Source of the DNA: Jimgerdemannia flammicorona
Taxonomy: Eukaryota
Length of the DNA stretch: 36,509 bases
Direction: 5' to 3'
Assembly: GCA_003990765.1 (NCBI GenBank)
Contig: RBNJ01000215.1
Coordinates: 1-36,509 of the forward strand
Made by a program: the position numbers and the translations under genes. Below, piece by piece: positions 5,032-36,509 of the stretch. Position 1 is the first letter of the stretch; every line of letters starts with the position of its first letter. The notes under the pieces were generated by a model, which saw only the letters and a list, made by a program, of their open reading frames with translations, was not told where the DNA came from and ran no database searches.

Positions 5032-5904
5032 TCACTGCATCCAGCTCTGCGGTAATATTTTACCATAAATCTTCAAATAATCCAACTTCAACGGAATCTT
5101 GTTCGCCCTCCCAATCACGCCCAATCCACCCACCAGCACGCCCGCCACACCAACCACAACCGCATATCGCTCCGTCCTACCACCACTCCGTGGTACCTTC
5201 TCCACGACATTACTTTTCTTCTTTTTCAATACGCGCCGCACTGCGAACGGCATCCCTGATACGGCATGGTATGCCATCAGCCCGACGAGTCCAACGTGGA
5301 ACCCATACGCTGTGAGTGGCCACCGCTGTAGAGCGAGCGAAATATAAGAAAAGTCGAGGAAGGCCGAGTCTCCGAAATGGCGGCGTGGAAGGAGGCGAAC
5401 AACAACGAAATGAGTGACGACGATGGGAACGAGGAGAAATCCCGAAAATGAGTGGTAGGGGAGGAAGGTCGTGGTTGGAGGCAGAATTGGGACAGAGATC
5501 AACGTTTCGACTACGGTGTTTTTCTCGCTACTGATTTTCTTTCGCTTGAACACGAATTCTTTGATCCCCGCTTTGACGGCCCCGCTGAGGAGGTGGACGG
5601 TGAGGGCACCGAAGGTAAGGACGGGCTCAAGCAGACGGTCCTGGTAAAGGGGGCGGCCGAGAAGGAGATAGCGGTTCGCGAGGTCGAGGCCGCCGAGATT
5701 GGCGGCGGAGATCTGGAGAGCGTGAGTGAGGAGAAAGGTGGAGAAGACGAGGGCGGAGGCTGACTGGATGGTCGTCAGAGTGCCATAGGCGCGGTAGACA
5801 TGCGATGTGGAGGTTGTGTCGGAAACAGGGGTGGGTGTGGTTCCAGGGACAGGGGCGGGTGTGGTTCCAGGGACAGTGACGGGAGTATGGTCGGGGACGG
5901 ACAT
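5032..5904 (-). CDS. Mcp1/DUF1691-like multi-pass membrane protein (mitochondrial Vps13 adaptor family), intact, ~290 aa from the first ATG
   Basis: Uninterrupted ORF with family-like segments QSASALVFSTFLLTH, YLLLGRPLYQDRLLEP, HLLSG, HSFSGFLLVPIVVTHFVVVRLLP and YHAVSG, plus several hydrophobic helices. First ATG is at 5904 (the ORF track starts at GTG 5940). Family recognised from memory, not by search. Confidence 0.75.
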   Translation of the reverse strand: MSVPDHTPVTVPGTTPAPVPGTTPTPVSDTTSTSHVYRAYGTLTTIQSASALVFSTFLLTHALQISAANLGGLDLANRYLLLGRPLYQDRLLEPVLTFGALTVHLLSGAVKAGIKEFVFKRKKISSEKNTVVETLISVPILPPTTTFLPYHSFSGFLLVPIVVTHFVVVRLLPRRHFGDSAFLDFSYISLALQRWPLTAYGFHVGLVGLMAYHAVSGMPFAVRRVLKKKKSNVVEKVPRSGGRTERYAVVVGVAGVLVGGLGVIGRANKIPLKLDYLKIYGKILPQSWMQ

Positions 5905-6019
5905 GGTAGTTGTGTCGTTGATGAGGAACAAATACGTCACCCATTAACCCCGGAAATTTCGCAAGCTGACGTCACAAATCATCAGGTGATATTTGCTGCG
6001 GCAGCGAGCACGTGAGAAG

Positions 6020-6422: not shown

Positions 6423-6729
6423 CGTATACATGCATCTCGGGTGTGGAACGCGACTTTCACAATATGGAACCCAAGAAAACACAAGAAACTGTAATGATCT
6501 TAATTTATTAGAACATGGGTATAAAGACATAATAATAGACTGTCCCAGAGGGAACGGAAAGAATATGCATAGAAGAGTGGGTATATGAGAGTGAGGCTAT
6601 ATATATAAAAAGCCCAAGTCGAGGCTACGTCTTATGTGGACGTGATACTCAAATAAATGATTCCGAACCCAATCAGGATTGGCTTTATGTAAATTGGAAA
6701 AATTGAGATCGAGTACCTCAATTTAGTGG

Positions 6730-7782
6730 TAGAGCAGTTGGATGTGCTCGTCAGTAGTATTTTACAGCGTGCTGGGATCGGTTGTGTCGACTTCGACGTC
6801 CTTGAGGTCGCGAAGGTACACCATAATAGGATAACATTCTTGTGGGAAGAGCCAGTGTTCTCTATTGAGGATATTGTTGATCTTTCCGATACCGCCGTGC
6901 TTCCTAAGAATTTGGAGATATGGATTGAATTTGTACCGACCGTGGCAGCTGTTGGTCCTGGAGACGATTTGGAGCAGAGATTTAAGAGCCATTTTTCTAA
7001 TATCCTCATCGGTATCATCAAGCTTGTTGCAGAGGTTTGTGATGATTGAGGTGGACCGCGTGCTGTTTCCAAGGCAGGTCCTACCGAGTTGTTCGCAAAG
7101 AGAGCACGGTACATTGCCAAAGCATTTTTTGTTGCTGTTCTTGCACCAAACACAAGCCTTCCCCGGAGATTTTCTTTTCTCTCTCTTGTCGGTAACGTGG
7201 AGTCGACAACGCTTTTTTTTTTTTCTTGCAGTCGGGACACTTGCTATACCGTACAGGATTTGTGGCGGCGATAGACGTGCTGGACAATTGCAGCGTGTCA
7301 CTTGTAGAGTATTGTGTCAAGAGGGAAGGTTGTCCAGCGGACGCACCAAATCTGTTCGGCAACAGAATTTGCGTGACTTCAACGCTATCAGGTAATTACA
7401 ATGCCGTTGGTTTCTGAGATGTTCGCCGAAACTATAGAATAAGCTCGGGAAATGGCTCTGGGTGGTAGGCTGGGTTGGGCTCCAATACTTGAATACTTTC
7501 GTCATTGCGCTCCTCCATGTCGATGCTGCCTTGTTCTTCGAATGGGACAGTGGTATTGGTACCGTAATCGGGATGGCTTTGGAAATTATAGGCGACGAGT
7601 TGATCGAGGTACCCGTTTAACCCACCGCCACTTTTGGTATGTTGCTGCCACAAAGTTTTCGGGGTGGTGGAGTTGTGTTGTTACCCAAATCGGGGTTATT
7701 CTGGAGGATATTGCCATCGCCACCATATTCTCCGATCGCTATACTAAGGTCGGAATCACCGCCGTGATGATATAGAGGGATG
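6730..7782 (-). pseudogene. Zn(II)2Cys6 protein paralog, 5'-truncated and frameshifted
   Basis: Encodes ACVWCKNSNKKCFGNVPCSLCEQLGRTC; the homologous peptide is split over ORFs 7432..7653, 7317..7505, 7081..7362 and 6762..7301, with one shift in the T run at 7213-7224. Confidence 0.8.
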
Positions 7783-9914: not shown

Positions 9915-10743
9915 GTTCCAGTGATGTATGCCTAGTTAACCACTGCAAGCAGTAACTGACTTGCATTGAAAAGCTATGTTGGCAGCACCATATAATTAAA
10001 ACAGTAATTCAATTACATTTTCTTCAAAGCTATATAGACTATTGCCTGCACATATATCCCCCCCTCCTCATAATTCCAAAGGCTTGAAATACTGGGCGGG
10101 CATCTTCATAAAATATTGAATCGGGTGGGGTATTTTTCGTGGACGGGTGTCACGTTTACGAACATGAATATGGCTTAATTGTATAGTCAAGACTGAAAAA
10201 AAAAACCCTTTTCCAAACCAGTTGTCAACCCTGAAGAAAGCCGCTGACTCCCTTAAGAGTATCATCTAACAAAAATATCAAGAATATGTGGCGTCAAATC
10301 CGTGCTTTGGGCATTTCGCATTTCTTTCCTTTTTATATGTTTCATTCCATTTCTACGGAAATCGGTCGTCGGCAAACGCTTAGTGTTGCATCGTAGCAGC
10401 AACGTCAAACATGCCGTCAAACACGCGCACTTGATGGCATGGGCAATGCGCATATTTGTTTTTAGATTGCAGCGTTGACAGGCCACGTGTCCTTGTCAGC
10501 ATAGCGAGTATTCACTGTTGTCAAGGTCGTTTGCAATCACTTTGGAGGTGTCTTTAGATGCAACTTTCCGAGGTTACTGTATTCGTAGATAATGCGTGAC
10601 ACTTCGAGCTTCTCATATTTGTTCGCGGCAGCGTAATAACAGTTGTGACAACATTGCAAGAACGTTCGTAAGAGCAAATAGGGAACAGATTTTGTTTATT
10701 TATACAATATTTCGATAATTATAAACATGCATTGCGGTTCAAT

Positions 10744-13700
10744 TTACCAATCAAGTTTTTTGTCCCCACAACCAGAGCCGCCGCCACACCCGCTTGTTAC
10801 AATGTCAACACCATCCATCTCACTATCCAGCTCGTTATTGACCCCCTCTAACTCTATGGATTTCTTAGCCGTTGAACTCTTTGTAATCAATAGCTTTTTC
10901 GTCGACAATACGGAGTTCAATGCCTCCACGGACGGCATCAAGGCGTACACCAGTCCGTCGTCGCCAATCTTCACGTCAAACGTCATCAAGTTGTATTTCT
11001 CTTCTTCTCCAGGTACCAAGCACTTGCCGTTTGTTAATGAAAATTCTTCTTGTGCATGCCGCACGAAACGTGGTGTTCCGTCTCCTTGGCCCCCAGCAGT
11101 CCTTGTGATACGTTTGTGTTTTGGGTGGCGTACCACTTATCTGTCGCGCTGTGGAATATTGAAATCTGACCTCGTCATACTTAAACGTCTCACCCGAATC
11201 CTTCGGGAAGAGATGGGCCGGCCCGACGGGAACCCAACTCCGTTCGTTGATTGACGAGGAACAACAGGGAATCCTTGGGCCAGTTAGCTTCGTTGTTGTC
11301 CGCGTTCAGTGATGTACTCGATTTTCTCCTGCCGTTCGTCGGAGTCATTCACCACCGCCGCCCATTCGCATTGATACGTCGATATTAGGTACTCCATCTG
11401 CGTCCCCAGCTCCGCAGCGATCCCCAGGCGATCTTCGATCCCACCTTCCATCTTCTCCAACCAGCGGGCCGTGCGCCAGCCGTCGAGATGTAGTATATCA
11501 GGAAGCGGTCAAGATAGCGGATGCAAAGTTCCTTGGAGGTGTCCGTGGCGAGTGGAGTGTTTGGTTTCGCGCCGCCGTTTCCGCACATGTAGAGGATGTA
11601 ACCTTTGTCAGTACCAATGAGCCCAAAGTCCTTGCTTTGGGCTTCCGTACATTCACGAACACATCCAGAGACGCCGCCTTTCAGATAATATGGTGTTGAG
11701 TTTAATGGCAGCGGCATTAGATTTGGAATTTTCTTTTGTTACATTGTAGAGGATGGGTTACCAACAAAATCCAAACTCACCTTATGCGGAGTTCGCAAAC
11801 CCTTATATTTGTTCCCAATCTTACGGCAAACCCCACGGAATCTCCGATACCGTAACGGCACCAAGTCGAACCAACACAACTCTGCGTATCGAAAATTAGA
11901 AATGGTTTGCTCAGAGAGCAAATCTTTCAGATTGCAGTGTCTTGTGTGATTGCAATGGATCGATGACCCACCTTTACGGTACGAATGGACTTGCCGTATG
12001 CCCTCCGGTCTCAAACCCGCAACGGACCTGTTTCTCCCAAATGTCTGGCAAATCTTGCTTCCTTGAGCCAAACATGTCGATGCGCTGACCGTCAGTAATC
12101 TTACCTGACGAATAAGAGGTTGATACAAAGTTATGAATTGGGTCCCAACCTTGTACATTTGTATTTTATGTCATACAAAACGTTTAAACTTACCAATGGC
12201 AACAAGCTTTTCCGGCGTAATCTCCCCGGCTGGGACGCGAGGACAACAGAATAGGTTGTTGTTAGGTCTAACTAACACGTAGAGATACATTATTTGACAA
12301 TGCCCCAGAAAAGCAACACATACGCACCTCGTTGGATGTTTGCCAAGAAACGATCGTTTGTATCTTGCAATGCCGTGTGATCTAATACGTGATCATTGTA
12401 GAGCGATGCTAGGATGGACGCCATGGCTGGCTTGCAGACTTCGCCCCCGATGACGTCACCATTTTTCCCAGCTACCTGCATGATCTCGGCAAACGTCTTG
12501 AGCTTCTTGAACTTAACGATCTCAAACAGTTTAGTGCGCGAGTACTCGAAATGATGGCAAACGTAGTTCTTCACGGTGACGCCCATCGCTTTCATCTCGG
12601 TCTCGAAGATCTCGGTTACTTGCGGAACGCATCCGCCACATCCTTAACGTGAGAAATACAAACATGTTAAGATCACATGGTTGGCTTCATCGAAGCAAAT
12701 ATCAATCAAAGTGGTCAACCAAGAAGTGGATGATAGCATACCAGTGCCAGTCTTGGAGCGCGACTTCACCTCGCCGACGCTGGTAAGCTTTTTCTCGCGA
12801 ATGACTTTTCGTATCGTCCCTTTTGTGACATTGTTACAAGAACAGACCTGCCCCTCGTCAGGAAGACTGTCTGCACCCACGACAGCGCCACCCTTTGTGC
12901 CGACGATAAGCTCGCCTGGAGGCATCGGAAGTAGCCTCTTCGACTTTCTGAGGGCGTGCAGCTTTGCGTAATCGGACATGTCGCCAACCATCATACCACC
13001 GAGAAGGTGCTTGCCGTCCTTGGAGAAGACGTTCTTCTTGTACACTCTACCAAAGGGGTCATTGTACACCAGCGGCTGCGAGATGTCGGGCCCGGAAAAG
13101 TAGTTCCCAAACCTCGCGACGTGGATTCCGAGAAGCTTGAGTTTGGAGGAGATGTCGCCACCGGAGAACTTCTTCTTCGGGGCCAGCTGGTTGCGGTGTG
13201 TGGTGAGGTTGCGGCTACGACTTCAGCCATTTCGTAACCAGGCGCGACGAGGCGCCGTGGTGGAGCGCGATCTCGCCGACTGCGAAGACATCGTCAGCGC
13301 TTGTTTCAAGGATATCATTGACTTGTACACCTCCGCGAGGATGGACGTCAATACCAGAGATGCGAGCGACATCGCCCCTTTATGAAGAAATAACAATGTT
13401 AAGTGTGTGCGGGACTTTGTATCATATAAGTAACAAACCAATCTGTAACAACTTTAGTAATGAGATACGGACGAATTTCAATCGCAAATACAACCATCGA
13501 CTCTTCAAGGAAGGTACCATCTTCCAACTTCAAACCCGCCACTGCGGCATTGCTATCGGGTATAATTTCGACCGGTGCATTACCGAGAGAAAATTGGATG
13601 TTGAGTTTTTCAATCTCTGCTGACAGTAGTAATGCACCATCATCATCTAGCTGCCGCCTTATCAAACGTGGGTTACGTTCAAAGATGGTGACCTGTAGGC

Positions 13701-14290
13701 CGAGGTCGAGTACGGCCTTGGCAGCTTTGAGGCCTAGCAAACCTCCTCCAACGACGGCTGCTGTCTTGACTCTCTTGGCGTATTCGATGATGGAGTCGAG
13801 GTCCCGGGTGTGCGGTAGACGAACACACCTTTTGAATTCATATTGGGACATTATGGTGGAAACGCGGTGGAGGATCCGGTAGTGAGAACGCAGTAGTCAT
13901 AGTCTACTCGATGACCCGATGATGACTCGATCCATTTCTCGGCGTGATTGACATAGGTGGCCTTCTGTCCCAGGTGGACGACAACTTTTTTTGCAGCGTG
14001 CCATTCGGGAGTTTGCAACAGGAGGCGAGAAGCGTCACGATGGCTAAAATATTGAGTCAAGCCAACACGGTAGTAGGCGACTTTGGGTTCGTTCGCAAAT
14101 AACAAGTACAGTTATTAGCACAAAGCAAAAGATAGAAAGAAAGTAAAAAAGAAGAAGAATAACTGCAATATCATGAGGCTCTTCACAGAAGACTTCTATC
14201 CTGCATGCCTTGTCGGTGTCATACTCTAGGATTTTTTCGATGAACGATAGACCCACCATCCCGAAACCCACCACGGCGATCGGTTGTCAT
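10744..14290 (-). pseudogene. niiA: Assimilatory NAD(P)H nitrite reductase, intron-containing, multiply disrupted
   Basis: Ordered motifs VVGFGMVG, GVFVYRT, VVGGGLLGL, KLKLLGIHVA, QVCSCNNVTKG, GCGGCVPQ, DTNDRFLANIQR, SCVGSTWCRYG, GVSGCVRECTEA, a Rieske remnant and terminal CGDKKLDW. In-frame stop at 13851-13853 and frameshifts near 13810, 13210, 11820 and 11045. Confidence 0.9.
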
Positions 14291-19040: not shown

Positions 19041-19588
19041 GACGAGTTTGCGCGTGAGAACGGTGGTCTGGATGTCAGAGGTTGTTTTGGTGTTTTAATG
19101 TGTGCAAAAAGATCGTCTGAATGGCTCACATTGGTCAATGAATCCGAACAGGATAGGTGGTAGTAAGATGAAGCATGATTGCAGCAACTAGCTTTGTCAT
19201 GCGTGTCATATTCTGGTGCCACCTAATTATATCCCTATACTCCGATTGGTCACCATAAGTTGCAGAGCTCTTAGCTATATGGTATACATACATCTTTAGA
19301 AATTTTCAATGACCATAGTTTATTAGGAAATGGGCATAAAACATAATAATAAACCTTATAAAGGGGGCTGAAAGCATATTCATAGAAGAGTGGGTATATG
19401 AAGTCGAGGCTACATAATACAAAAAGGCCGATCGAGGATGCCCCATATGTTAACGTGATACTCCGAAACCAATCAGTGTTGGCTTTACGTTTATGTAAAT
19501 TGGAAAAGTTGAGATCGGGCACCTCAATTTAGTAAATACGAAATGCAACTTTTCGGTGGAGCAGTTGGATGTGCACGTCGGTAGTGTT

Positions 19589-21181
19589 TTACAGTGTGTT
19601 GGGATCGGTTGTGTCGGTGTCGATGTCCTTGAGGTCGCGAAAGTATTCTCTAACAGGATGACATTCATGAGGGAAGAGACAGTGTTCCTTATTGAGAACA
19701 CTGTTGATCTTCCCGATACCGCCGTGCTTCTTAAGAATTTGGAGATATGGGTTGAAGTTATACCGATCGTGGCAGCCGTTGGTCCCCGAGACGATTTGAA
19801 GCAGAGATTTGAGAGTTTTTTTTCTAATATTCTCATCGGCATCATCAAGCTTGTTGCAGAGGTTTGTGATGATTGCAGTGGACTGCGTGTTGTTTCCAAG
19901 GCAGGTCCTATTGAGTTGGCCGCAAAGAGAGCACGGCACATTACCAAAGCATTTTTTGTTGCTATTCTTGCACCAAACACAAGCCATTCCCGGAGATGCT
20001 CTTTTCTCTTTCTTGTCAGTGGTGTGGAGTCGACAACGCTTCTTCATTTTCTTGCAGTCAGGACACTTGCTGCATGGTACGGGATTTGTGGTGACGATAG
20101 ACGTGCTGCGCAATTGCGGCGAGTCGCTTGTAAAGGATTGTGTCAAGATGGAAGGTTGTCCAGCGGTCGCATCAAGCTTGTTTGGCTTGACCTCCTCGAC
20201 ACCTTCAAGTACTATGGAATAAGTTTGGGGAATGACGCCAGGTGGCAGGCTGGGGTCGGGCTTCGACTGTTGAAGACTTTCGTCATTGCGTTTGTGAAAG
20301 GGGATTTTGTACACAATGTCCATGATGGTGTCACCTTCTTCGAATGGGACGGTGGTATTGGTATTGGGATCAAGATAGTTTTGGACATTATAGGCGACAA
20401 CTTTATCGAGGTACACGTTTAATCCACCGTCATCTTCGGTATCCTTGTCGCTGTCGTTCAGATTGTCAGATGGAGGAGTTGTGTTGGGATGCCTCTGGAG
20501 GATATTGCAGTAGCCGCCATATTCTTCACCACATTCTCCGGACGCGATATTAAGGTCGAAATCACTGCCGTGACGATATAGGGGAATTTCCACAATGTTG
20601 GTATCCAATTTGAAGTTAGTTTCGGTGGCATATTCATCGCGCATGTCGGGGATTTGACTGTAGTCAATGAACTCGGCGAAGTCTTCGACAGTGTGCGCGC
20701 TACGATCGTCGGTTACCTCTGACAGATTTTCTTCGGTCAGGATGCTGGGGTTATCTACGTTCAAAAAGCTTTCATCATTTAGCTCAATGTTTATGTTATT
20801 TATATTTAGATTCCCTTCGGCGTCTTGTAAATTGTTGAAACCTCCTTGATCGGTTGCGTTGGTGAACATACTGAAACCGGGTAGAAGGTCAAGATTGCCT
20901 CGGAATATGACCATGAACTTTTCATCGTCAGTGCAGATGTTTGACCCTAGCAAGTCTTGAAATTCGAGGTTGCTCATGCTGGTGGGAGAGCGTCGATCAT
21001 CCATGAAGTCGGGGGGCGTATTGGCTCGCTGATACGTTGAACTTGATTCGAGGTGTGTTTGGAGGTCGTCGTTGCAATTAAAGATGAATGAACACCTTAG
21101 ATTGGGACAAGTACAGATGCGGAAAGGAAGGTTGGAATTGGGGAGCATGTTTTTGAATAAGCTGTGGGAAGTGTTATGCAC
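19589..21181 (-). CDS. Intronless Zn(II)2Cys6 zinc-cluster protein, 530 aa, putative transcription factor
   Basis: Single ORF; exact CX2CX6CX5CX2CX6C motif CVWCKNSNKKCFGNVPCSLCGQLNRTC (19901-19981), preceded by basic CSKCPDCKKMKKRCRLH; long acidic N-terminal region. Alternative start at 21148. Confidence 0.85.
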   Translation of the reverse strand: MHNTSHSLFKNMLPNSNLPFRICTCPNLRCSFIFNCNDDLQTHLESSSTYQRANTPPDFMDDRRSPTSMSNLEFQDLLGSNICTDDEKFMVIFRGNLDLLPGFSMFTNATDQGGFNNLQDAEGNLNINNINIELNDESFLNVDNPSILTEENLSEVTDDRSAHTVEDFAEFIDYSQIPDMRDEYATETNFKLDTNIVEIPLYRHGSDFDLNIASGECGEEYGGYCNILQRHPNTTPPSDNLNDSDKDTEDDGGLNVYLDKVVAYNVQNYLDPNTNTTVPFEEGDTIMDIVYKIPFHKRNDESLQQSKPDPSLPPGVIPQTYSIVLEGVEEVKPNKLDATAGQPSILTQSFTSDSPQLRSTSIVTTNPVPCSKCPDCKKMKKRCRLHTTDKKEKRASPGMACVWCKNSNKKCFGNVPCSLCGQLNRTCLGNNTQSTAIITNLCNKLDDADENIRKKTLKSLLQIVSGTNGCHDRYNFNPYLQILKKHGGIGKINSVLNKEHCLFPHECHPVREYFRDLKDIDTDTTDPNTL

Positions 21182-21272
21182 CGCGGACTTTTATATGGAC
21201 GCGAAATCATCCTTGCATTCCAATATTCCCGAACGCGTAGGCACCAAATTTGGCGATTATATTTGAGCGGCG

Positions 21273-21512
21273 CTTCAGGCGCCTTATGTAACCAGGCGAC
21301 CTGCCCCCTTCAGGCGCCTTCAGGCGCCTTGTGTAACCAGGCGACCCGGCCCTTCAGGCGCCTTGTGTAACCAGGCGACCCCGGCCCTTCAGGCGCCTTG
21401 TGTAACCAGGCGACCCGGCCCTTCAGGCGCCTTGTGTAACCAGGCGACCTGCCCCTTCAGGCGCCTTGTGTAACCCGGCGACCTGCGCAAGCGCCTTGTG
21501 TGTAACGAGGCC
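21273..21512. repeat. 34-35-bp GC-rich minisatellite, 6 units plus a partial one
   Basis: Unit CTTCAGGCGCCTTGTGTAACCAGGCGACC(C/T)G(G/C)CC starting at 21273, 21318, 21352, 21387, 21421 and 21455; no unique spacers. Confidence 0.95.
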
Positions 21513-24600: not shown

Positions 24601-24883
24601 CCTCCAATTGATCACTATAACATACACACATCCCTGGGGTGAAACAATATGGAACCCAAGAAAACAGGAAACTTGTATCGACAAGGGTTTATAGGAAAAT
24701 GGCATAAAAACATAGTAACAATGTGTTATAAAGAAGTTTGAAAGCATATGTATAGAAGAGTGGGTATATGAAGTCTATATAATACAAAAACCTAAGGCGA
24801 GGATGCGCCATATGTGAAAATAAATTACTCCGACCCAATAAGGATAGGCTTTATAAAAATAGGGGAAATTGAAATTGAGAGCC

Positions 24884-26320
24884 TCAATTCAGCAAATTGA
24901 ATTGTAGCTTTTCAGGGGGGGGGTCGGTTGTGTTGGTGTCGATGTCCTTGAGGTCGCGAAAGTATGCCATAACAGAATAGCATTCATGTGGGAAGAGCCA
25001 GTGTTCTCTATTGAGGACACTGTTTATCTTTTCGATACCACCGTGCTTCTTAAGAATTTGGAGATATGGATTGAATTTGTACCGGCCGTGGCAGCCGTTG
25101 GTCCCGGAGACAATTTGGAGCAGATATTTGAGAGCCATTTTTCTAATATCCTCATCGGCATCATCAAGCTTGTTGCAGAGGTCAGTGATGATTGCGGTGG
25201 ACTGTGTGCCGTTCCCAAGGCAGGTCCTACCGAGTTGGTGGCAACGAGAGCACGGTACATTGCCAAAGCATTTTTTGTTGCCATTATTGCACCAAACGCA
25301 GGCCTTTCCCGGAGATATTCTTTTTTCTTTCTTGTCGGAGGTGGCTTGGAGCCGACAACGCTTCTTCCTTTTCTTGCAATCGAGACACTTGCTGTGCGGT
25401 ACAGGATTCGTGGTGGCGATAGACGTGCTGGACAATTGCGGCGTGTCGCTTGTGGGAGATTGTGTCGGGGGGAAAGGTTGTCCAGTGGATGCATCAATCT
25501 TGTTCGGCTGCAGATTTTGTACAATGCCGTAAGCCTCTGAGATGTTCGCCGAAACTATTGAATAAGCTCGGGCAATGACTTTGGGTGGTAGGCTGGGGTT
25601 GGGCTCCGATGCTTGAATACTTTCGTCATTGCGTTTGTGAAAGGGAATGCTGTACATGATATCCTGTTCTTCGAATAGGACAGTGATATCGGTATCGTAA
25701 TCAGGATAGTTTTGGGCGTTATAGGCGACGAATTGACCGAAGTACCCGTTTAATCCACCGCCACTTTCGGTATCTATGTAGCTGTCACCAAGTTTTCCGG
25801 GTGGAGGAGTTGTGCTATTGTCCAAGTTGGGGTGACTCTGGAGGATATCGGTGTCGCCACCATATTCTTCGATCGCGATACTAAGGTTAATATCGGCGGT
25901 ATTTTCGTCGGGTATGTTGGGTATTTGGCTAAAGTCAATGAGCTCGGCAAAATTTTCTTCAAGGCTTGTGTTTCGATCGCTTCGTGCGTCTTGTAAATTT
26001 CCGAAACCTCTTTGATCGGTTGCGTTGGTGGCGATGCTGAAACCAAGTAGCAGGTTAAGATTTCCTCGTAAAATGGCCATGGAGCTTTTATCGACAGTGC
26101 CGAATGGAGATTCGAGATGAGCTCGGAGGTTGTCGTTGCCGTCAAAGGCGAATGGACACCTGGGATTGGGACAGGTACAGATGCTGCAAGGAAGGTTGGA
26201 ATTGGAGGGGATGTTTGGTGGGGAGGAGGGGGGGACTTTAATATATGCCTCGCAGGCTGACGTAAATCTAAATCGGACATGGCATATGCTGGGATACTTA
26301 CTCTGACCCAGTAGGTTCAA
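24884..26320 (-). CDS. Second long-ORF Zn(II)2Cys6 paralog (start uncertain; first ATG at 26080, ~398 aa)
   Basis: Open frame with CVWCNNGNKKCFGNVPCSRCHQLGRTC; colinear with 19589..21181. The Met used by the paralog reads ATC here and the C-terminus differs. Confidence 0.7.
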   Translation of the reverse strand: MNLLGQSKYPSICHVRFRFTSACEAYIKVPPSSPPNIPSNSNLPCSICTCPNPRCPFAFDGNDNLRAHLESPFGTVDKSSMAILRGNLNLLLGFSIATNATDQRGFGNLQDARSDRNTSLEENFAELIDFSQIPNIPDENTADINLSIAIEEYGGDTDILQSHPNLDNSTTPPPGKLGDSYIDTESGGGLNGYFGQFVAYNAQNYPDYDTDITVLFEEQDIMYSIPFHKRNDESIQASEPNPSLPPKVIARAYSIVSANISEAYGIVQNLQPNKIDASTGQPFPPTQSPTSDTPQLSSTSIATTNPVPHSKCLDCKKRKKRCRLQATSDKKEKRISPGKACVWCNNGNKKCFGNVPCSRCHQLGRTCLGNGTQSTAIITDLCNKLDDADEDIRKMALKYLLQIVSGTNGCHGRYKFNPYLQILKKHGGIEKINSVLNREHWLFPHECYSVMAYFRDLKDIDTNTTDPPPEKLQFNLLN

Positions 26321-30379: not shown

Positions 30380-31441
30380 TTTTTTTTTTTTTTTTTTTTT
30401 TAACGGACTCATGTCCCGCGGATTTTTATTGGAAGGGAACCTAGACTATATAGGCCAAAACCCTCCCCCACTACCCACCAAGCACTGCCACCCCATTAAC
30501 CTAGGCTAGCTATTGTCCAGCAGCTCGACCATATCAGGCACAGCAGGGCCAATATAGGCCTGCACCTCATTCTGCGCACTATGCTCTCCCTACCACCAGG
30601 GGAAACCCAACCATATGCCAACGACCGAAAGCACATATCTGAGAACCCAACATATGTACAAGGCCATGCTCGAGCTGAATAGAATAGCCCCTGCCACCCC
30701 AAAGAGAATGACAGACAAAGAAAAAACCCTCATCAAAGTATAACACGGTAGATAGGGCCTGGTTCTCCCAGTTGAGGTGAGTAAAGGACTTATACGTGAG
30801 GCAGGAGGAAACCCCCAATACCCCACTACTCAAGCCTGCGGGCCTTGATCATGTTGCCATATCAGCTCCCAGTTTCAATTGAGTGCAGCCAAGATGTCTG
30901 AAATGGGTAGCCTTGGGCCTCCTGACCCCCTCTGATGACTGGGGCCTAACCCCGCTGACTACCAAAAGAAGCTGATAGTGACACCTACCACCTAACCATG
31001 CCACACCAATCAAAAGGCCCCACCGAAGCAGCACCTACTCCAGCCCCAATGACTGCCCCCAGCCTGGCACCCTACTAGTCTACTGTTATCGCCCTTCCTC
31101 CTATCTGTGATGGCCATCTCTCCTCCCATCCCAACAACACCTGAAAAACAGTCACCTACGCCAGAACCATACTTACCAGGAAGCTTGCCAAAGCCAGAGG
31201 GCCCCACCACAGACACCAAGGACCTGCAGGTAACCTACACTGAGCACTTGATGCCCAAGGTCGGCTGACTCCCTATGTAGCCCGAGACATACCAAGACAA
31301 CTCCTTGTTGGTGATGGCAAAAGGAAGAAGGTGCTACACTAAAACAAGTATACCCCAGATGCAGCCGAAGGTACCAGAATTCGTGAAAAAGTAGAGGAAT
31401 CACCAATCTGATACCAATAAAGGGGCAACTCATCACTATTG
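30380..31441 (-). mobile_element. Family-A poly(A) retroposon, copy 3
   Basis: Poly(T) 30380-30401; perfect 15-bp TSD ATAATGTGAAATCTC at 30365-30379 and 31442-31456; ~150 bp shorter at the 5' end than copies 1-2. Confidence 0.9.
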
Positions 31442-31474
31442 ATAATGTGAAATCTCATTCAACTTCACTATAGT

Positions 31475-31477
<3 letters not shown>

Positions 31478-31538
<61 letters not shown>

Positions 31539-34406
31539 GTCACTTAGACTTCTTTATTATGAACTATCTAATACAATAATAATGAACCACAGACTACTAC
31601 TAACATCACATAATATATATAAGCAGAGTCTGTTAGCCAACTTCTTCTTTCCATCTTATCTCATGATCATCTAACATCAGAAACCCTTGACTCTGCTGTA
31701 TAATATCCTGTACCTTCTTCAAGGCTCCTGGCTGGAGTTGCTTCCCCTGATACCACCACCCCTGTATAACCTCCTGGAGAAGCCACTTCTACCACTCCAC
31801 TATCTCTCCAATCCCCATCCATGGGTCCTGTTCAAAAACCCACCACCAATGTACTGCCATCAAGACTCAGACCCCCAAGACTCTACCTAGGCTTTCCCAT
31901 ATATCACCAATTTCCCCTACCAGCCAGCGCTTGACCACTAGACTGATTAGGTCCTCTGTCCTTCACCTCTCTGGGCCCCAGTAATCTTCCAAACTCCACC
32001 AAAACCCTTCTACTCCTGGGTAGGCCCCCAGAACATATTCCGGTGTCTGAACAATTCCTCCATCCACCTCATTACACCACTCACAATTCCAACAGCCATT
32101 GACCTCCATCCAGCCTGTTCAATAACTCAGCATCACATTACATCTCAAGAATCACTACCAAACCACCCAGTACTTGAGTGGTATCATCTTGTATACTGAG
32201 GCTCTCCAATTCCAGATTCGGCCCCACTCTCAGTCTTCACCAATACCAGCTCTCTGCCAACCAGGCAGCCATCACTCCAGAGGGCCAGACCTGATCCACT
32301 CTATTACTTCGATTAGAGAGTACCCCTTCAGACTGTGGCCACCAACACAAAGGTCTCCCAGTCACCACCATCTCTGCCCAGGGGTTTTACCCACTTCTAT
32401 CTCAGGGCCTACCAACCTTATGGCCAGCCAGGCCTCTACAATACCCCATCAGAACCCCTTGAACCACAGTCAACCAACTCCTCCAACCTGAAGCAAGCCC
32501 CACATATCCTTCCAAACCTCACCATGAGAGCAGAACTGGACCTCCCAATTGTCCATGGCCAGCCTGCCCCAACCTTCCTCACCTAGTTCTACCATTCGGC
32601 ACCCCCACCAACCCCGAAGTACCTTCAGCTGGCACTTGAAATTCACTAGCTCCAGGCCTCCATCAGAAGTCTTCATCACTACAGTCTCCCACCCAATCTG
32701 CAGATACCTCCCATGCCACAACCACCCTTCTACAATCTTCTTCAGCCACTGCACCACCCACTCTGGGAAATCCAGATGATAACCCAGATACTACAGTTTG
32801 GGTAACCAATACACATTCAAGATCACTATTCTGCCAACCAATGAGAAGCTCCTCCCTGACCAACCCATCAGTGCACCTTCTAGCTTCTGAATCAATTCAC
32901 ACCACCACTCCTTTGGCAGGACTGTTCCATATACTGAGAACCAGATACCCAGATACCAAATAGCACTCCCTGTGGCTACCAATTGTCCGAATTGTCCATG
33001 TCCTCCTAGGCCGGCACCAAGTTCCATTGTCTCACACTTGCCCCAATTCAACTTTGCCCCTGCCAGCCTCTCATACTGTCTGACCCCTTCTTGTAGGACT
33101 TCTACATCCTCTTGACTGTCCAACCCTACAACCATGTCATCTACAAAGGTGCCTAACTGCCAGACCACCTCCCCCATCTGCAGTCCAGAGAGCCACCCCT
33201 TCAGCTATACCAGCAAAGGCTCTAAAGAAAGTACATAAAGAAGGGAGGAGAGAGGATCCCCCTGTGGTACCCCTCGCCCCAAGGCAAACTCTGGTCCACA
33301 CTAGCTATTTATCATTACTGCTGCTTGGTATCCCCATATCAAGCCCATCAGTCACTCTGCCTCTACTTCACCAAACCCTGCTCTCCTCAGAACAGCCTCC
33401 AGGTAACTCCACTACACTCTGTCATAGGCCTTCTCTTGATTCAGAAAGACCATCTGGCCATCTACCTGCTGGCTCCTACAGCTCTCTAAGACATTTGGCA
33501 CCCAAGCAGTACTATCTCTGATCTGCCTCCCCTTGACAAAGCCTCGCTACTCTTTCTCCACTAGCACACCAATATACTGCTATATCCTCCCTGCAAGAAT
33601 CTTTGACACCAACTTTCTATCCACATTCAGCAGCATGATAGGTCACCAATTACACCACACTCATCAATACCTCTTTTCCTTATATAGAAGAGAAACTAGC
33701 CCCAAGGAACTATTGCCAATCCAGCTGCCTTCCTTCAGGACAGCATTGGCCATCTCCACCAACCAGTTACCAAACTCAGTCTTGAACTCCTTCCAGAACT
33801 CCCAGGGCAATCCACCCTCCCCAGGAGATGAACCAGTCTGCATCTCTCTCAGTACTTCCAATACCTCATCTAGAGACACCTCCCCCATGACTGCCTCCCC
33901 TATCTCAGGTATCGCTGTCACTGGCCAATTGGTCACCATATTGTCATTGTCCTCCCCAAGCCAATTATCCTCAGCATGCTCCCCGCTATCCTGCCAAAGA
34001 GCTTGCCATTGACCAGATACCTCCCCTAACATGTCAGCTATCCCAGAGACCTCCACTCTATCTTTATGCAATACTGAGGCCCAACTATGTCATACTCTCC
34101 TGGCCTTCAACACACCAGACAGATATCTTGTTAGCCTCTCTCCTTCTTCCAGCCATCTAGCTCGCAGCCTGGCCAGCAGGCCATCTACCACTCTGGTCTC
34201 AGACACCCATAAATCTGCCTGCAGTTCTGCCACCTCAAAAGACAACTGGTGGCACACCTTACCAGACAAGTTCCCCTTTTCCAAAAGCTTCAATCACCAT
34301 CTCAGCCCCTTCTCTACTCTCCTTTCCTTGTCCTTCTGTTCCTTTCCAGCCACTTCTCCAACATCACGCCAGTAGGTACTGGCCAAATGTTTGAATTTTC
34401 CCCACC
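31478..34406 (-). mobile_element. Decayed L1/Tx1-like LINE (RT and C-terminal part of ORF2), interrupted by the LTR element
   Basis: 58-nt poly(T) 31478-31535; RT motifs SSPGEGGLPWEFWK, PIMLLNVDRKLVSKILAGR, GVPQGDPLS (~33250-33275), FVDD (33136-33147) and YLGIWF, with many stops. Confidence 0.9.
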
Positions 34407-34808
34407 TGTAACATTTTAGCATAGTTTATTCCTTTTCTTTGTCTTTCTCCAATATTCCACAACCTTCTGGTACTTTCCGAATGCTTAGAAATCCTTTCTT
34501 GGTGCCGAGCATTAACTAGTACTTACTTAGTTAGTCACTGAATGTCCTGGAAACTTGTAGAACTTTATTTGTCATTATTTGTCATCTCTGCTGAGAACTT
34601 TCCTCTTAGCATTTTCCTTTGATTTCTCAGATCCTTCCGGATCCTTCTTTCAGATCTTGTATAAATATCCCCTTTGTTCTCATGAATAAAGCTCAGAATA
34701 TTTTCTCCCAGAAATCCTTCGAGAACACTTGAATCCTTAGTATCTCTTCGAGCTACTTAGGACCACCAGAATTAGTCGCTTCCTCATTTAGAAACTAGAA
34801 CCGTTACA
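34407..34808 (+). repeat. 5' LTR (402 bp) of a Ty3/Gypsy-like element
   Basis: Inverted termini TGTAAC...GTTACA; TATAAATA at 34660-34667 and AATAAA at 34685-34690; LINE sequence stops abruptly at 34406. The partner LTR is outside the window. Confidence 0.85.
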
Positions 34809-34810
34809 CT

Positions 34811-34822
34811 TGGTAGCAGCAG
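34811..34822 (+). promoter_or_regulatory. Primer-binding site, probably initiator tRNA-Met
   Basis: TGGTAGCAGCAG 2 nt after the LTR end; TGGTAGC is complementary to the 3' end typical of eukaryotic tRNAiMet. Confidence 0.7.
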
Positions 34823-34876
34823 TGAAGTTACACCTAGCCTTATCAAGACATCTCTCAAGATATCAGTCACAACACT

Positions 34877-36509
34877 ATGGAGGACAACAGGTAGAACTCT
34901 TCATACAATGCCTATGGTCCAGGCAATGCCTCTTACCATCAGCAAGAAGAAGAAGAGGAACAGCCAATTCCCACCCAGTCAACCGGGTCCATCGAGAGTC
35001 TTTTGCAAACTGCATTTGCTCAGATTGCCCAACTTCAAGAACACATAGAAAGAAAGGAAAGCAAGGCCCCCGCTCATACCTCCACACCTCCACCGACATC
35101 AATACATCCAACGGCAGTCACTATCAAGCTGCAGAAGCCTGACACCTTTGATGGTCAAAGAGGAGGACTGTCTACTGATGCCTGGCTTTTCCAATTAGAG
35201 CAATATGGAGAACTGACCAATTTGGAAGAAACAACACTAGTCCAATTTGCTGCCACACTCCTCCGAGGGAATGCTGCAATCTGGTGGCGAAATCATGTCC
35301 AGAACACCAGATTCTCTGGCCGAATCAAGACCTAGGGTGAGTTCTCTGATGCTATTCAAGGCCAATTCAAACCAGTCAACAGCACCAAGGCCACACGAGA
35401 CCGTCTGACAAATGTCAAACAACTCAAGTCTGTGCAAGCATACAATGCACAATTCCTGTCAATCCTGCTAGAATTACCACATGTCACTGAAGACGAGAAG
35501 GTTGACAAGTACATCCGAGGTTTGAAAGGTCAAACCCGAGTTCGTGTTGAACTAGAAGAACCCAAGGACCTAGACACAGCAATGAAAATTGCTGATAGGT
35601 TTGATGTCATCACCTATGGTCACCACTTTGAACAGAAGAGACCACCTTTCAACAACAACAACAACAACCACAGAAGGGAGGAACCCAAAGTCAGAACTGT
35701 TAGACCTGCCCCCATGGATCTAGACACCATTGATAAGAACAAGAAAGGCAAGCTTACACCCGAGGAAAAGGAGTACCTCAAGAAGGCTGGAGCCTGCTTC
35801 TTTTGCCATCAGCCTGGTCACATTGCAACCAAATGTCCCAAGAAAACCTCAGAACCAAAGAGGATCCTGGTCCTGTCCAAAGACACTCAAGGTCAACCAG
35901 TCAAACAAGAAGTTGTACTCAATTTCATACAAGTCAACCCCAAGGCCCAGATCCCTCAAGTACAGTCAGAAGGAGCCATTGGTTTGGACCTTCAAGCAGT
36001 ACAACAAGTCACTATTCCGGCACATGAAAGAAGGCTCATCCCAACTGGCCTTTCAGTCGAAATCCCCAAGGAACATTATGCAAGAATTGTGCCAAGATCT
36101 GGCCTCAGCTTCAAGCACTCATTGGATGTTGGTGCTGGAGTCATAGACCCTGACTTTCGAGGTGAAATGCAAGTTCTGCTAGTCAACCACAAGAACCAGC
36201 CATATACCGTCAATGAAGGAGATAGAATTGCACAGCTCATTCTGGAGCGAGCCACCCTACCAGTTGTCAAAGAAGTCACCAAGCTATCTTCAACCAAGCG
36301 AGATCAGAAAGGCTTTGGCAGCACTGACAAAGTTGCAAGCATAGCTGAGAGCCGAGCCAATTCAATGCTCATTTTCAAAGGCCTAGTCAAGGGACAAGAA
36401 CTAGATGTTCTCATAGACAGCGGAGCTGTTGGGAACTTCATCAACAAGAACCTCATCGACAAGCTCAAGATTCTCACCAAACCAGCTGGCAAGAATGGTG
36501 GAGTTGTCA
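34877..36509 (+). mobile_element. LTR-retrotransposon polyprotein gag-CCHC-dUTPase-aspartic protease (continues past the window; two premature TAG codons in gag)
   Basis: One frame from ATG 34877: KPDTFDG..AWL..LRGNAAIWW (gag), PMDLD, CFFCHQPGHIATKC (35795-35836), dUTPase 35918-36325 and VLIDSGAVGNFI (DSG at 36416-36424). Stops at 34892-34894 and 35333-35335. Confidence 0.92.
35918..36325 (+). CDS. dut: Trimeric-type dUTPase domain within the retrotransposon polyprotein
   Basis: All five motifs in order: AIGLDL, PRSG, GVIDPDFRGE, GDRIAQL, RDQKGFGST; no stops in this segment. Confidence 0.93.

Follow-up and report, generated by a model that had tools for sequence, protein, structure and literature searches.

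The stretch of DNA analyzed here (the window) covers 36,509 nucleotides from the fungus Jimgerdemannia flammicorona. Outside the element described below, two coding regions could be recognized in it:

5032-5943, minus strand: ORF with an MCP1_TM domain, a host-type gene
10682-13896 (with 12644-13896 among them), minus strand: pieces of a nitrite-reductase-like gene (Pyr_redox_2, Rubredoxin_C, BFD-like 2Fe-2S)

The MCP1-like ORF aligned over 66% of its length with a protein of J. flammicorona at 96% identity, the next best match being one of Umbelopsis at 46%, and this host gene confirms that the DNA is fungal, as the initial annotation had proposed from the letters alone. The nitrite-reductase-like gene is presumably split over several ORFs by introns. 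The window is also rich in repeats. One of about 0.9 kb was found in three copies that are 83-92% alike (1-900, 1849-2750 and 30419-31307), of which those starting at 1849 and 30419 come just after long T or AT runs. Another stretch is also present three times, with copies 77-85% alike (6632-7700, 19450-21190 and 24865-26320); two of these carry long minus-strand ORFs of 533 and 478 aa and the first one of ca. 200 aa. No Pfam family was matched by the ORFs of this stretch, which is possibly an unclassified mobile element or a gene family. Two tandem repeats were also detected, one with a unit of 27 bp at 1139-1354 and a GC-rich one with a unit of approximately 34-35 bp and roughly six copies at 21268-21502.

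The right end of the window is occupied by the start of an LTR retrotransposon, with another repeat directly upstream. The features found there are the following:

31454-34406, minus strand: what looks like the decayed remains of a LINE-like retroelement (non-LTR type), adjoining the Gypsy LTR on its upstream side
34407-34808, plus strand: 5' LTR of 402 bp with TG..CA ends and 6-bp terminal inverted repeats (TGTAAC/GTTACA)
34660-34667, plus strand: TATAAATA, the TATA box of the 5' LTR, read from the sequence
34685-34690, plus strand: AATAAA in the 5' LTR, read from the sequence
34811-34828, plus strand: candidate primer-binding site, extent approximate, with TGG 2 nt past the LTR end
34877-36508, plus strand: gag and pol in one reading frame, which two TAG codons interrupt and which is still in the protease at the window end
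34892-34894, plus strand: first in-frame TAG, five codons past the only in-frame ATG
35123-35650, plus strand: capsid-like Gag core (Retrotrans_gag / Ty3_capsid), from Pfam and from an alignment to P0241 that starts at 35123
35333-35335, plus strand: second TAG of the frame, a nonsense change seen in the copy of the window but not in the contigs of other copies
35795-35836, plus strand: nucleocapsid CCHC zinc knuckle, CFFCHQPGHIATKC, from pattern, Pfam and alignment
35918-36331, plus strand: dUTPase domain of the trimeric, all-beta type (PF00692, E 8e-37)
36380-36508, plus strand: N-terminal part of an aspartic protease, DSG triad at 36416-36424, cut by the window end

The frame translation of 34877-36508 gives, in series, a capsid-like Gag, a CCHC knuckle, a dUTPase and the start of a protease (proteins from the searches are designated here by P numbers). 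Read through its stops, this frame is colinear with residues 50-481 of P0241 (43% identity, E 2e-124; the TAG was read as W for that alignment only). The Gag part downstream of the second stop matched Retrotrans_gag (E 1.5e-7) and Ty3_capsid (E 2.8e-10). The zf-CCHC profile scored 18.1 bits, below the Pfam cut-off of 20.8, though the CCHC pattern is present, and the cysteines and the histidine of the knuckle are conserved in all five aligned relatives that span the region. The protease start reads LIDSGA, with its D at 36416. Two Pfam protease models matched it only partially and below threshold (E about 0.008) because just 38 of some 90 profile positions lie inside the window, which holds the first ~43 residues of the protease; reverse transcriptase (RT), RNase H, IN and the 3' LTR would lie beyond its end. 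In P0001 and P0241 the RVP_2 domain is the aligned counterpart of this segment. As in Ty3/Gypsy elements, a TG..CA LTR is followed by a primer-binding site, here a candidate, and a Ty3-type capsid by a CCHC nucleocapsid, here with the knuckle below the Pfam cut-off. The initial reading of the region is supported: an LTR retrotransposon of the Ty3/Gypsy type, from a fungus, in which an in-frame dUTPase separates the zinc knuckle from the protease. Gag, dUTPase and protease share one frame in the window and in its relatives alike, so that no frameshift is required. In this respect the domain order and the common frame described earlier stand, while the claim that the frame is uninterrupted does not, given the two in-frame TAG codons.

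We have used contigs of other copies to judge the state of this one. Logan contigs of four public sequencing runs (X1, X2, X6 and X8, two of the four being soil metagenomes and the other two coming from organisms) were aligned to positions 34000-36509 at a likeness of at least 80%, giving 681, 69, 151 and 571 contig pieces, respectively. Such numbers indicate a multi-copy family, and most of the differences between copies were transitions. At position 35334, where the window has A, all 14 contigs that cover it have G (six in X1, one in X2, four in X6 and three in X8), restoring TGG, and the position of the second TAG is aligned with a Trp of P0241. The nonsense change is thus private to the copy in the window, which is therefore dead, and with two nonsense codons interrupting its frame the fusion protein cannot come from it. 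The same TAG explains why the ORF track stops at 35335, an end that had been attributed to the remainder of the frame having no stop. The alternatives of a readthrough signal or of an intron boundary at 35333 (GTGAGT comes next) were discarded on the basis of the TGG in the other copies and of the aligned Trp.

Both ends of the LTR are fixed by these contigs of other copies, which gives 34407-34808. The match begins at 34407 in contigs of X1 (two), X2 (two) and X6 (one), and the sequence before it, rich in purines, differs from that of the window, as would be expected at the junction of the internal region and the 3' LTR of other copies. It ends at 34808 in five contigs of X8 and at 34809 in one of X2, after which the flanks differ. 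Within the window we found no second copy of the LTR start and no tRNA genes. Another X8 contig links 35208 back to 34407 with eight letters between, and probably represents a rearranged copy. The summed contig depth of X8 over the LTR end and primer-binding site (34756-34839) was 18858 against tens elsewhere, in a run that is only guessed to be RNA and with a contig depth that is not a measure of expression. In a search of sequencing runs the share of the sampled words did not exceed 0.20 in any run, and the matches listed included no RNA run. A scan of metagenome contigs with the 359-aa ORF gave 594 pattern matches, none of them confirmed.

The repeat upstream of the LTR looks like a decayed minus-strand non-LTR retrotransposon. 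A plus-strand T run of about 80 nt (31454-31535) would correspond to a minus-strand poly(A) tail, a weak RVT_1 match (E 2e-4) is located at 32791-33204, and GC skew is strongly negative over 31-35 kb. One contig of X2 tracks this repeat as far as 34406 and then diverges, which fits an insertion of the Gypsy element into another repeat. Taken as a whole, we are highly confident that what the stretch contains is a 5' third, from a defective copy of a Ty3/Gypsy (Metaviridae) element with a high copy number, comprising the 5' LTR, a candidate primer-binding site and gag-pol up to the start of the protease, and that its family has a dUTPase between the nucleocapsid (NC) knuckle and the protease within one Gag-Pol made without frameshifting.

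The dUTPase itself was described at the outset as complete in its five motifs, and we have found no reason to change this. The PF00692 match spans profile positions 2-128 of 129, and the five motifs of a trimeric dUTPase appear in order:

35975-35992, plus strand: dUTPase motif 1, AIGLDL
36092-36109, plus strand: dUTPase motif 2, PRSGLS
36137-36166, plus strand: dUTPase motif 3, GVIDPDFRGE
36221-36238, plus strand: dUTPase motif 4, DRIAQL
36299-36325, plus strand: dUTPase motif 5, RDQKGFGST

The key residues of these motifs are invariant in the six sequences compared that have the order gag-dUTPase-protease (gag-dUT-PR), in spite of overall identities of merely 29-47%, which indicates long-term purifying selection. 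Among solved structures the top chain was a cellular dUTPase (3so2_A, E 1.5e-36), and active cellular dUTPases were matched over their full length with E values of 1.5e-36 to 1e-31. The retroviral structures match far worse (FIV 1f7d, E 8e-16; M-PMV 2d4l, E 5e-12).

In intact family members the dUTPase would be translated within the single Gag-Pol and carried into the virus-like particle, where cleavage by the protease may leave it fused to the nucleocapsid (NC-dUTPase) or release it as a trimer. The protease begins only about 15 residues past motif 5, so that the C-terminal arm of the dUTPase probably becomes free only upon cleavage there. Hydrolysis of dUTP to dUMP and pyrophosphate would then take place near the reverse transcriptase; a lower dUTP level would leave less uracil in the cDNA and reduce its destruction by uracil excision, a protection that would be most important in cells with little cellular dUTPase. 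We infer this uracil-limiting role by analogy with retroviral dUTPases, as treated in the available text of two papers (PMC4531489, PMC2864245).

Two motifs invite some caution. Most dUTPases have a Tyr in motif 3 and follow the consensus R-G-x-x-G in motif 5. The window has a Phe in the first and RDQKG in the second, and since the whole close family shares both this Phe and the sequence RDQKGFGST, these replacements are not the decay of one dead copy. They leave full catalytic competence less than certain, and they could suggest that the domain is kept for a non-catalytic function, as a structural spacer of Gag-Pol, a trimerisation module or in some signalling or moonlighting role. The closeness of the protease to motif 5, which could hinder the C-terminal arm before cleavage, might be read in the same sense. 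Against this, the remaining residues of the catalytic motifs did not vary across sequences of 29-47% identity, the domain matches active cellular dUTPases strongly and from end to end, and the Tyr of motif 3 is retained in P0123 and P0001. We consider a purely non-catalytic role improbable and retain the interpretation of a dUTPase that would act on dUTP during reverse transcription.

How frequent is the gag-dUT-PR order? A search for longer proteins gave 138 matches, 120 of them listed, and we have scanned with Pfam the 41 polyproteins that carried Gypsy-type or retroviral domain labels (Copia-type ones being left out). The dUTPase comes before the protease in five of the 41 (P0001, P0002, P0003, P0004 and P0072) and after it in 25 (20 Gypsy-type polyproteins and five vertebrate SCAN-PR-dUT proteins). 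Three more (P0010, P0011 and P0013) have it between RT and IN, and in the remaining eight (P0005, P0009, P0018, P0022, P0027, P0029, P0039 and P0044) it is located upstream of RT with no protease match at E 1e-6. The nearest long relatives, P0001 and its cluster mates P0241 and P0245, are single ORFs running from gag through dUTPase, protease, RT and RNase H to IN. A chromodomain closes P0003 and P0072; P0241 and P0245 stop short of the region where it would be. P0001, P0241 and P0003 are 42-47% identical to the window protein. Much closer are fragments of its own family in other assemblies (P0122, 95%; P0251, 93%; P0121 and P0259, 90%; P0128, 88%).

An exhaustive search against cluster representatives gave 36509 matches at E 1e-3 or better, and the best 150 were mapped onto the query. 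Three of these 150 were colinear with gag, dUTPase and protease, one with gag and dUTPase and three with dUTPase and protease, so that an order of this type was counted in seven (3 + 1 + 3); gag only was matched in 11 and dUTPase only in 132. Top representatives that matched in several stretches had been taken for gag-dUT-PR proteins and were rejected as such, having turned out to consist of two or three dUTPases in tandem. Such pseudo-trimeric single polypeptides are numerous among the best dUTPase matches of the representatives (P0281-P0295 and others), and several of the 132 are of this kind. The gag-dUT-PR order is, in the proteins examined, a minority arrangement, yet a recurrent one. The novelty of the order, which had been suggested together with the proviso that it should not already be common in annotated fungal families, does not hold, in view of the five polyproteins of 41, the seven of the best 150 representatives and the elements described in the accessible part of Novikova et al. 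(2010, PMC2864245).

To place the domain we have computed a quick maximum-likelihood tree from 140 columns and 93 dUTPase domains, a manual selection made in advance of the tree from 256 domain-bearing proteins. The window dUTPase grouped with those of P0251, P0123, P0001 and P0004 (SH-aLRT 94), while P0003 and P0072 were paired elsewhere, within a polytomy. In this free search the dUTPases of Gypsy elements that have the domain between protease and RT (PR-dUT-RT) made a clade of their own (SH-aLRT 99). When the seven gag-dUT-PR sequences were constrained to one clade, the likelihood rose by 21.6 lnL over the free search (p-AU 0.83). A single origin of the layout is thus compatible with the alignment, and even favoured by it. 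A clade joining gag-dUT-PR and PR-dUT-RT dUTPases, with truncated sequences left free, was 22.2 lnL lower and was not rejected (p-AU 0.18). A stricter version of this constraint had been rejected by the AU test (p 0.0003), and we have discarded that result since the constraint expelled three N-terminally truncated sequences that are nested in the PR-dUT-RT clade.

These data bear on the proposal, made when the element was first noticed, of an independent capture, taken here as a recent event in which this very element gained the dUTPase gene of a host. Fungal elements do seem to have gained dUTPases independently and from different sources, to judge from the available sections of Novikova et al. 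(2010, PMC2864245), and the separation of the PR-dUT-RT dUTPases in the free tree points in the same direction. The nearest dUTPases beyond the close family are, however, those of other gag-dUT-PR elements (P0123 at 68%, with P0001 and P0004 in the same strongly supported clade), and the gain in likelihood under the one-clade constraint argues against a recent event, as does the origin shared with the PR-dUT-RT group that the test left standing. Unfused dUTPases of ca. 140-240 aa outside its own family, bacterial and eukaryotic alike, were merely 45-56% identical among the matches listed, the named cellular ones among them 47-52%, so that no close cellular donor stands out in that list. The tree provides no support for the earlier proposal, and we regard a recent capture as very improbable. 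As for a chimeric assembly, or the mere adjacency of a dUTPase gene of the host and a retrotransposon fragment, the only point in favor is that the window is repeat-rich, and the probability is practically negligible given that the junctions of CCHC with dUTPase and of dUTPase with protease are colinear in P0122, P0251 and P0259 (90-95% identity) and in P0001, P0241 and P0003 (42-47%), and are both covered by contigs of the four runs.

What we retain is a dUTPase that belongs with those of other gag-dUT-PR elements. The soil-derived P0001, P0241 and P0245 and the chromoviruses P0003 and P0072 have the same one-ORF order as the window, with dUTPases compatible with one clade, although they are only 29-47% identical to the window protein. 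A possible extension, which we put forward tentatively and consider on balance rather doubtful, is that the elements with the gag-dUT-PR layout, chromoviruses included, are a single old clade of Gypsy elements from soil fungi, which acquired its dUTPase once and would deliver an NC-linked dUTPase at Gag stoichiometry since gag and pol form one ORF. If this were true, the clade would have converged, with no frameshift, on the NC-dUTPase of betaretroviruses, and the window would be its first noted instance in Mucoromycota (Endogonales).

Several described systems resemble the element in part. In the chromoviruses of Postia placenta three locations of the dUTPase within Pol have been described, namely the amino-terminus in PosPlaTy3-3, the carboxyl-terminus in PosPlaTy3-4 and the interval between protease and RT in PosPlaTy3-5, as stated in the text available from Novikova et al. 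(2010, PMC2864245), where earlier reports of dUTPase-bearing elements from Phanerochaete chrysosporium and Tuber melanosporum are cited. PosPlaTy3-3 is likewise a fungal Ty3/Gypsy element with the dUTPase upstream of the protease at the Pol amino-terminus; the likeness is in the described position of the domain, and the host of that chromodomain-containing element is a basidiomycete, whereas that of the window belongs to the Endogonales (Mucoromycota).

The PR-dUT-RT elements, described from rotifers, planarians and fungi in the consulted parts of Rodriguez et al. (2017, PMC5408684) and Arkhipova and Yushenova (2019, PMC6431247), also carry the dUTPase within Pol. They include Tmt1 of Tuber, the rotifer Juno, Vesta and TelKA and the planarian giants, and account for 20 of the 41 polyproteins scanned. 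Their dUTPase comes after the protease and has its own clade in the free tree, whereas that of the window comes before the protease.

The comparison with betaretroviruses, drawn already in the initial annotation, is correct in that their NC-dUTPase is a gag-pro transframe product of frameshifting (Hizi and Herzig, 2015, PMC4531489, in the portions available). As in the window, the dUTPase of MMTV (p30) and M-PMV directly follows the nucleocapsid and precedes the protease. According to the same portions of that paper, the MMTV and M-PMV enzyme is trimeric and packaged in the particle, as would be that of intact members of the window family. Betaretroviruses need a -1 frameshift where the window has Gag, dUTPase and protease in one frame, so that its dUTPase is not a gag-pro transframe protein and the likeness is in order only. 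The domain of the window is, moreover, far nearer to cellular dUTPases (E 1.5e-36) than to that of M-PMV (2d4l, E 5e-12). Betaretroviral and fungal chromoviral dUTPases have been considered alike (Llorens et al., 2009). In the literature searched we found no paper that combines "dUTPase" with Jimgerdemannia, and for dUTPase and retrotransposon with Mucoromycota only the Entomophthora genome paper, in which dUTPase is among the enriched transposon-linked Pfam domains.

The gag-dUTPase-PR layout is not new, and the window contains a further dUTPase-bearing Gypsy family, from a fungus of the Endogonales. Alone it carries little weight, since fungal Gypsy elements with a dUTPase, also those with the domain before the protease, have been in print since 2008-2010, and in public protein collections many polyproteins of retroelements have a dUTPase, at several different places. 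It does document such an element in the Endogonales, a mycorrhizal lineage of early divergence with a transposon-rich genome, and it adds evidence of the abundance of this family in soil sequence data. The NC-dUTPase-PR layout recurs outside retroviruses without frameshifting, and such elements could help to explore what the expression level of a packaged dUTPase, and its processing, mean for reverse transcription.
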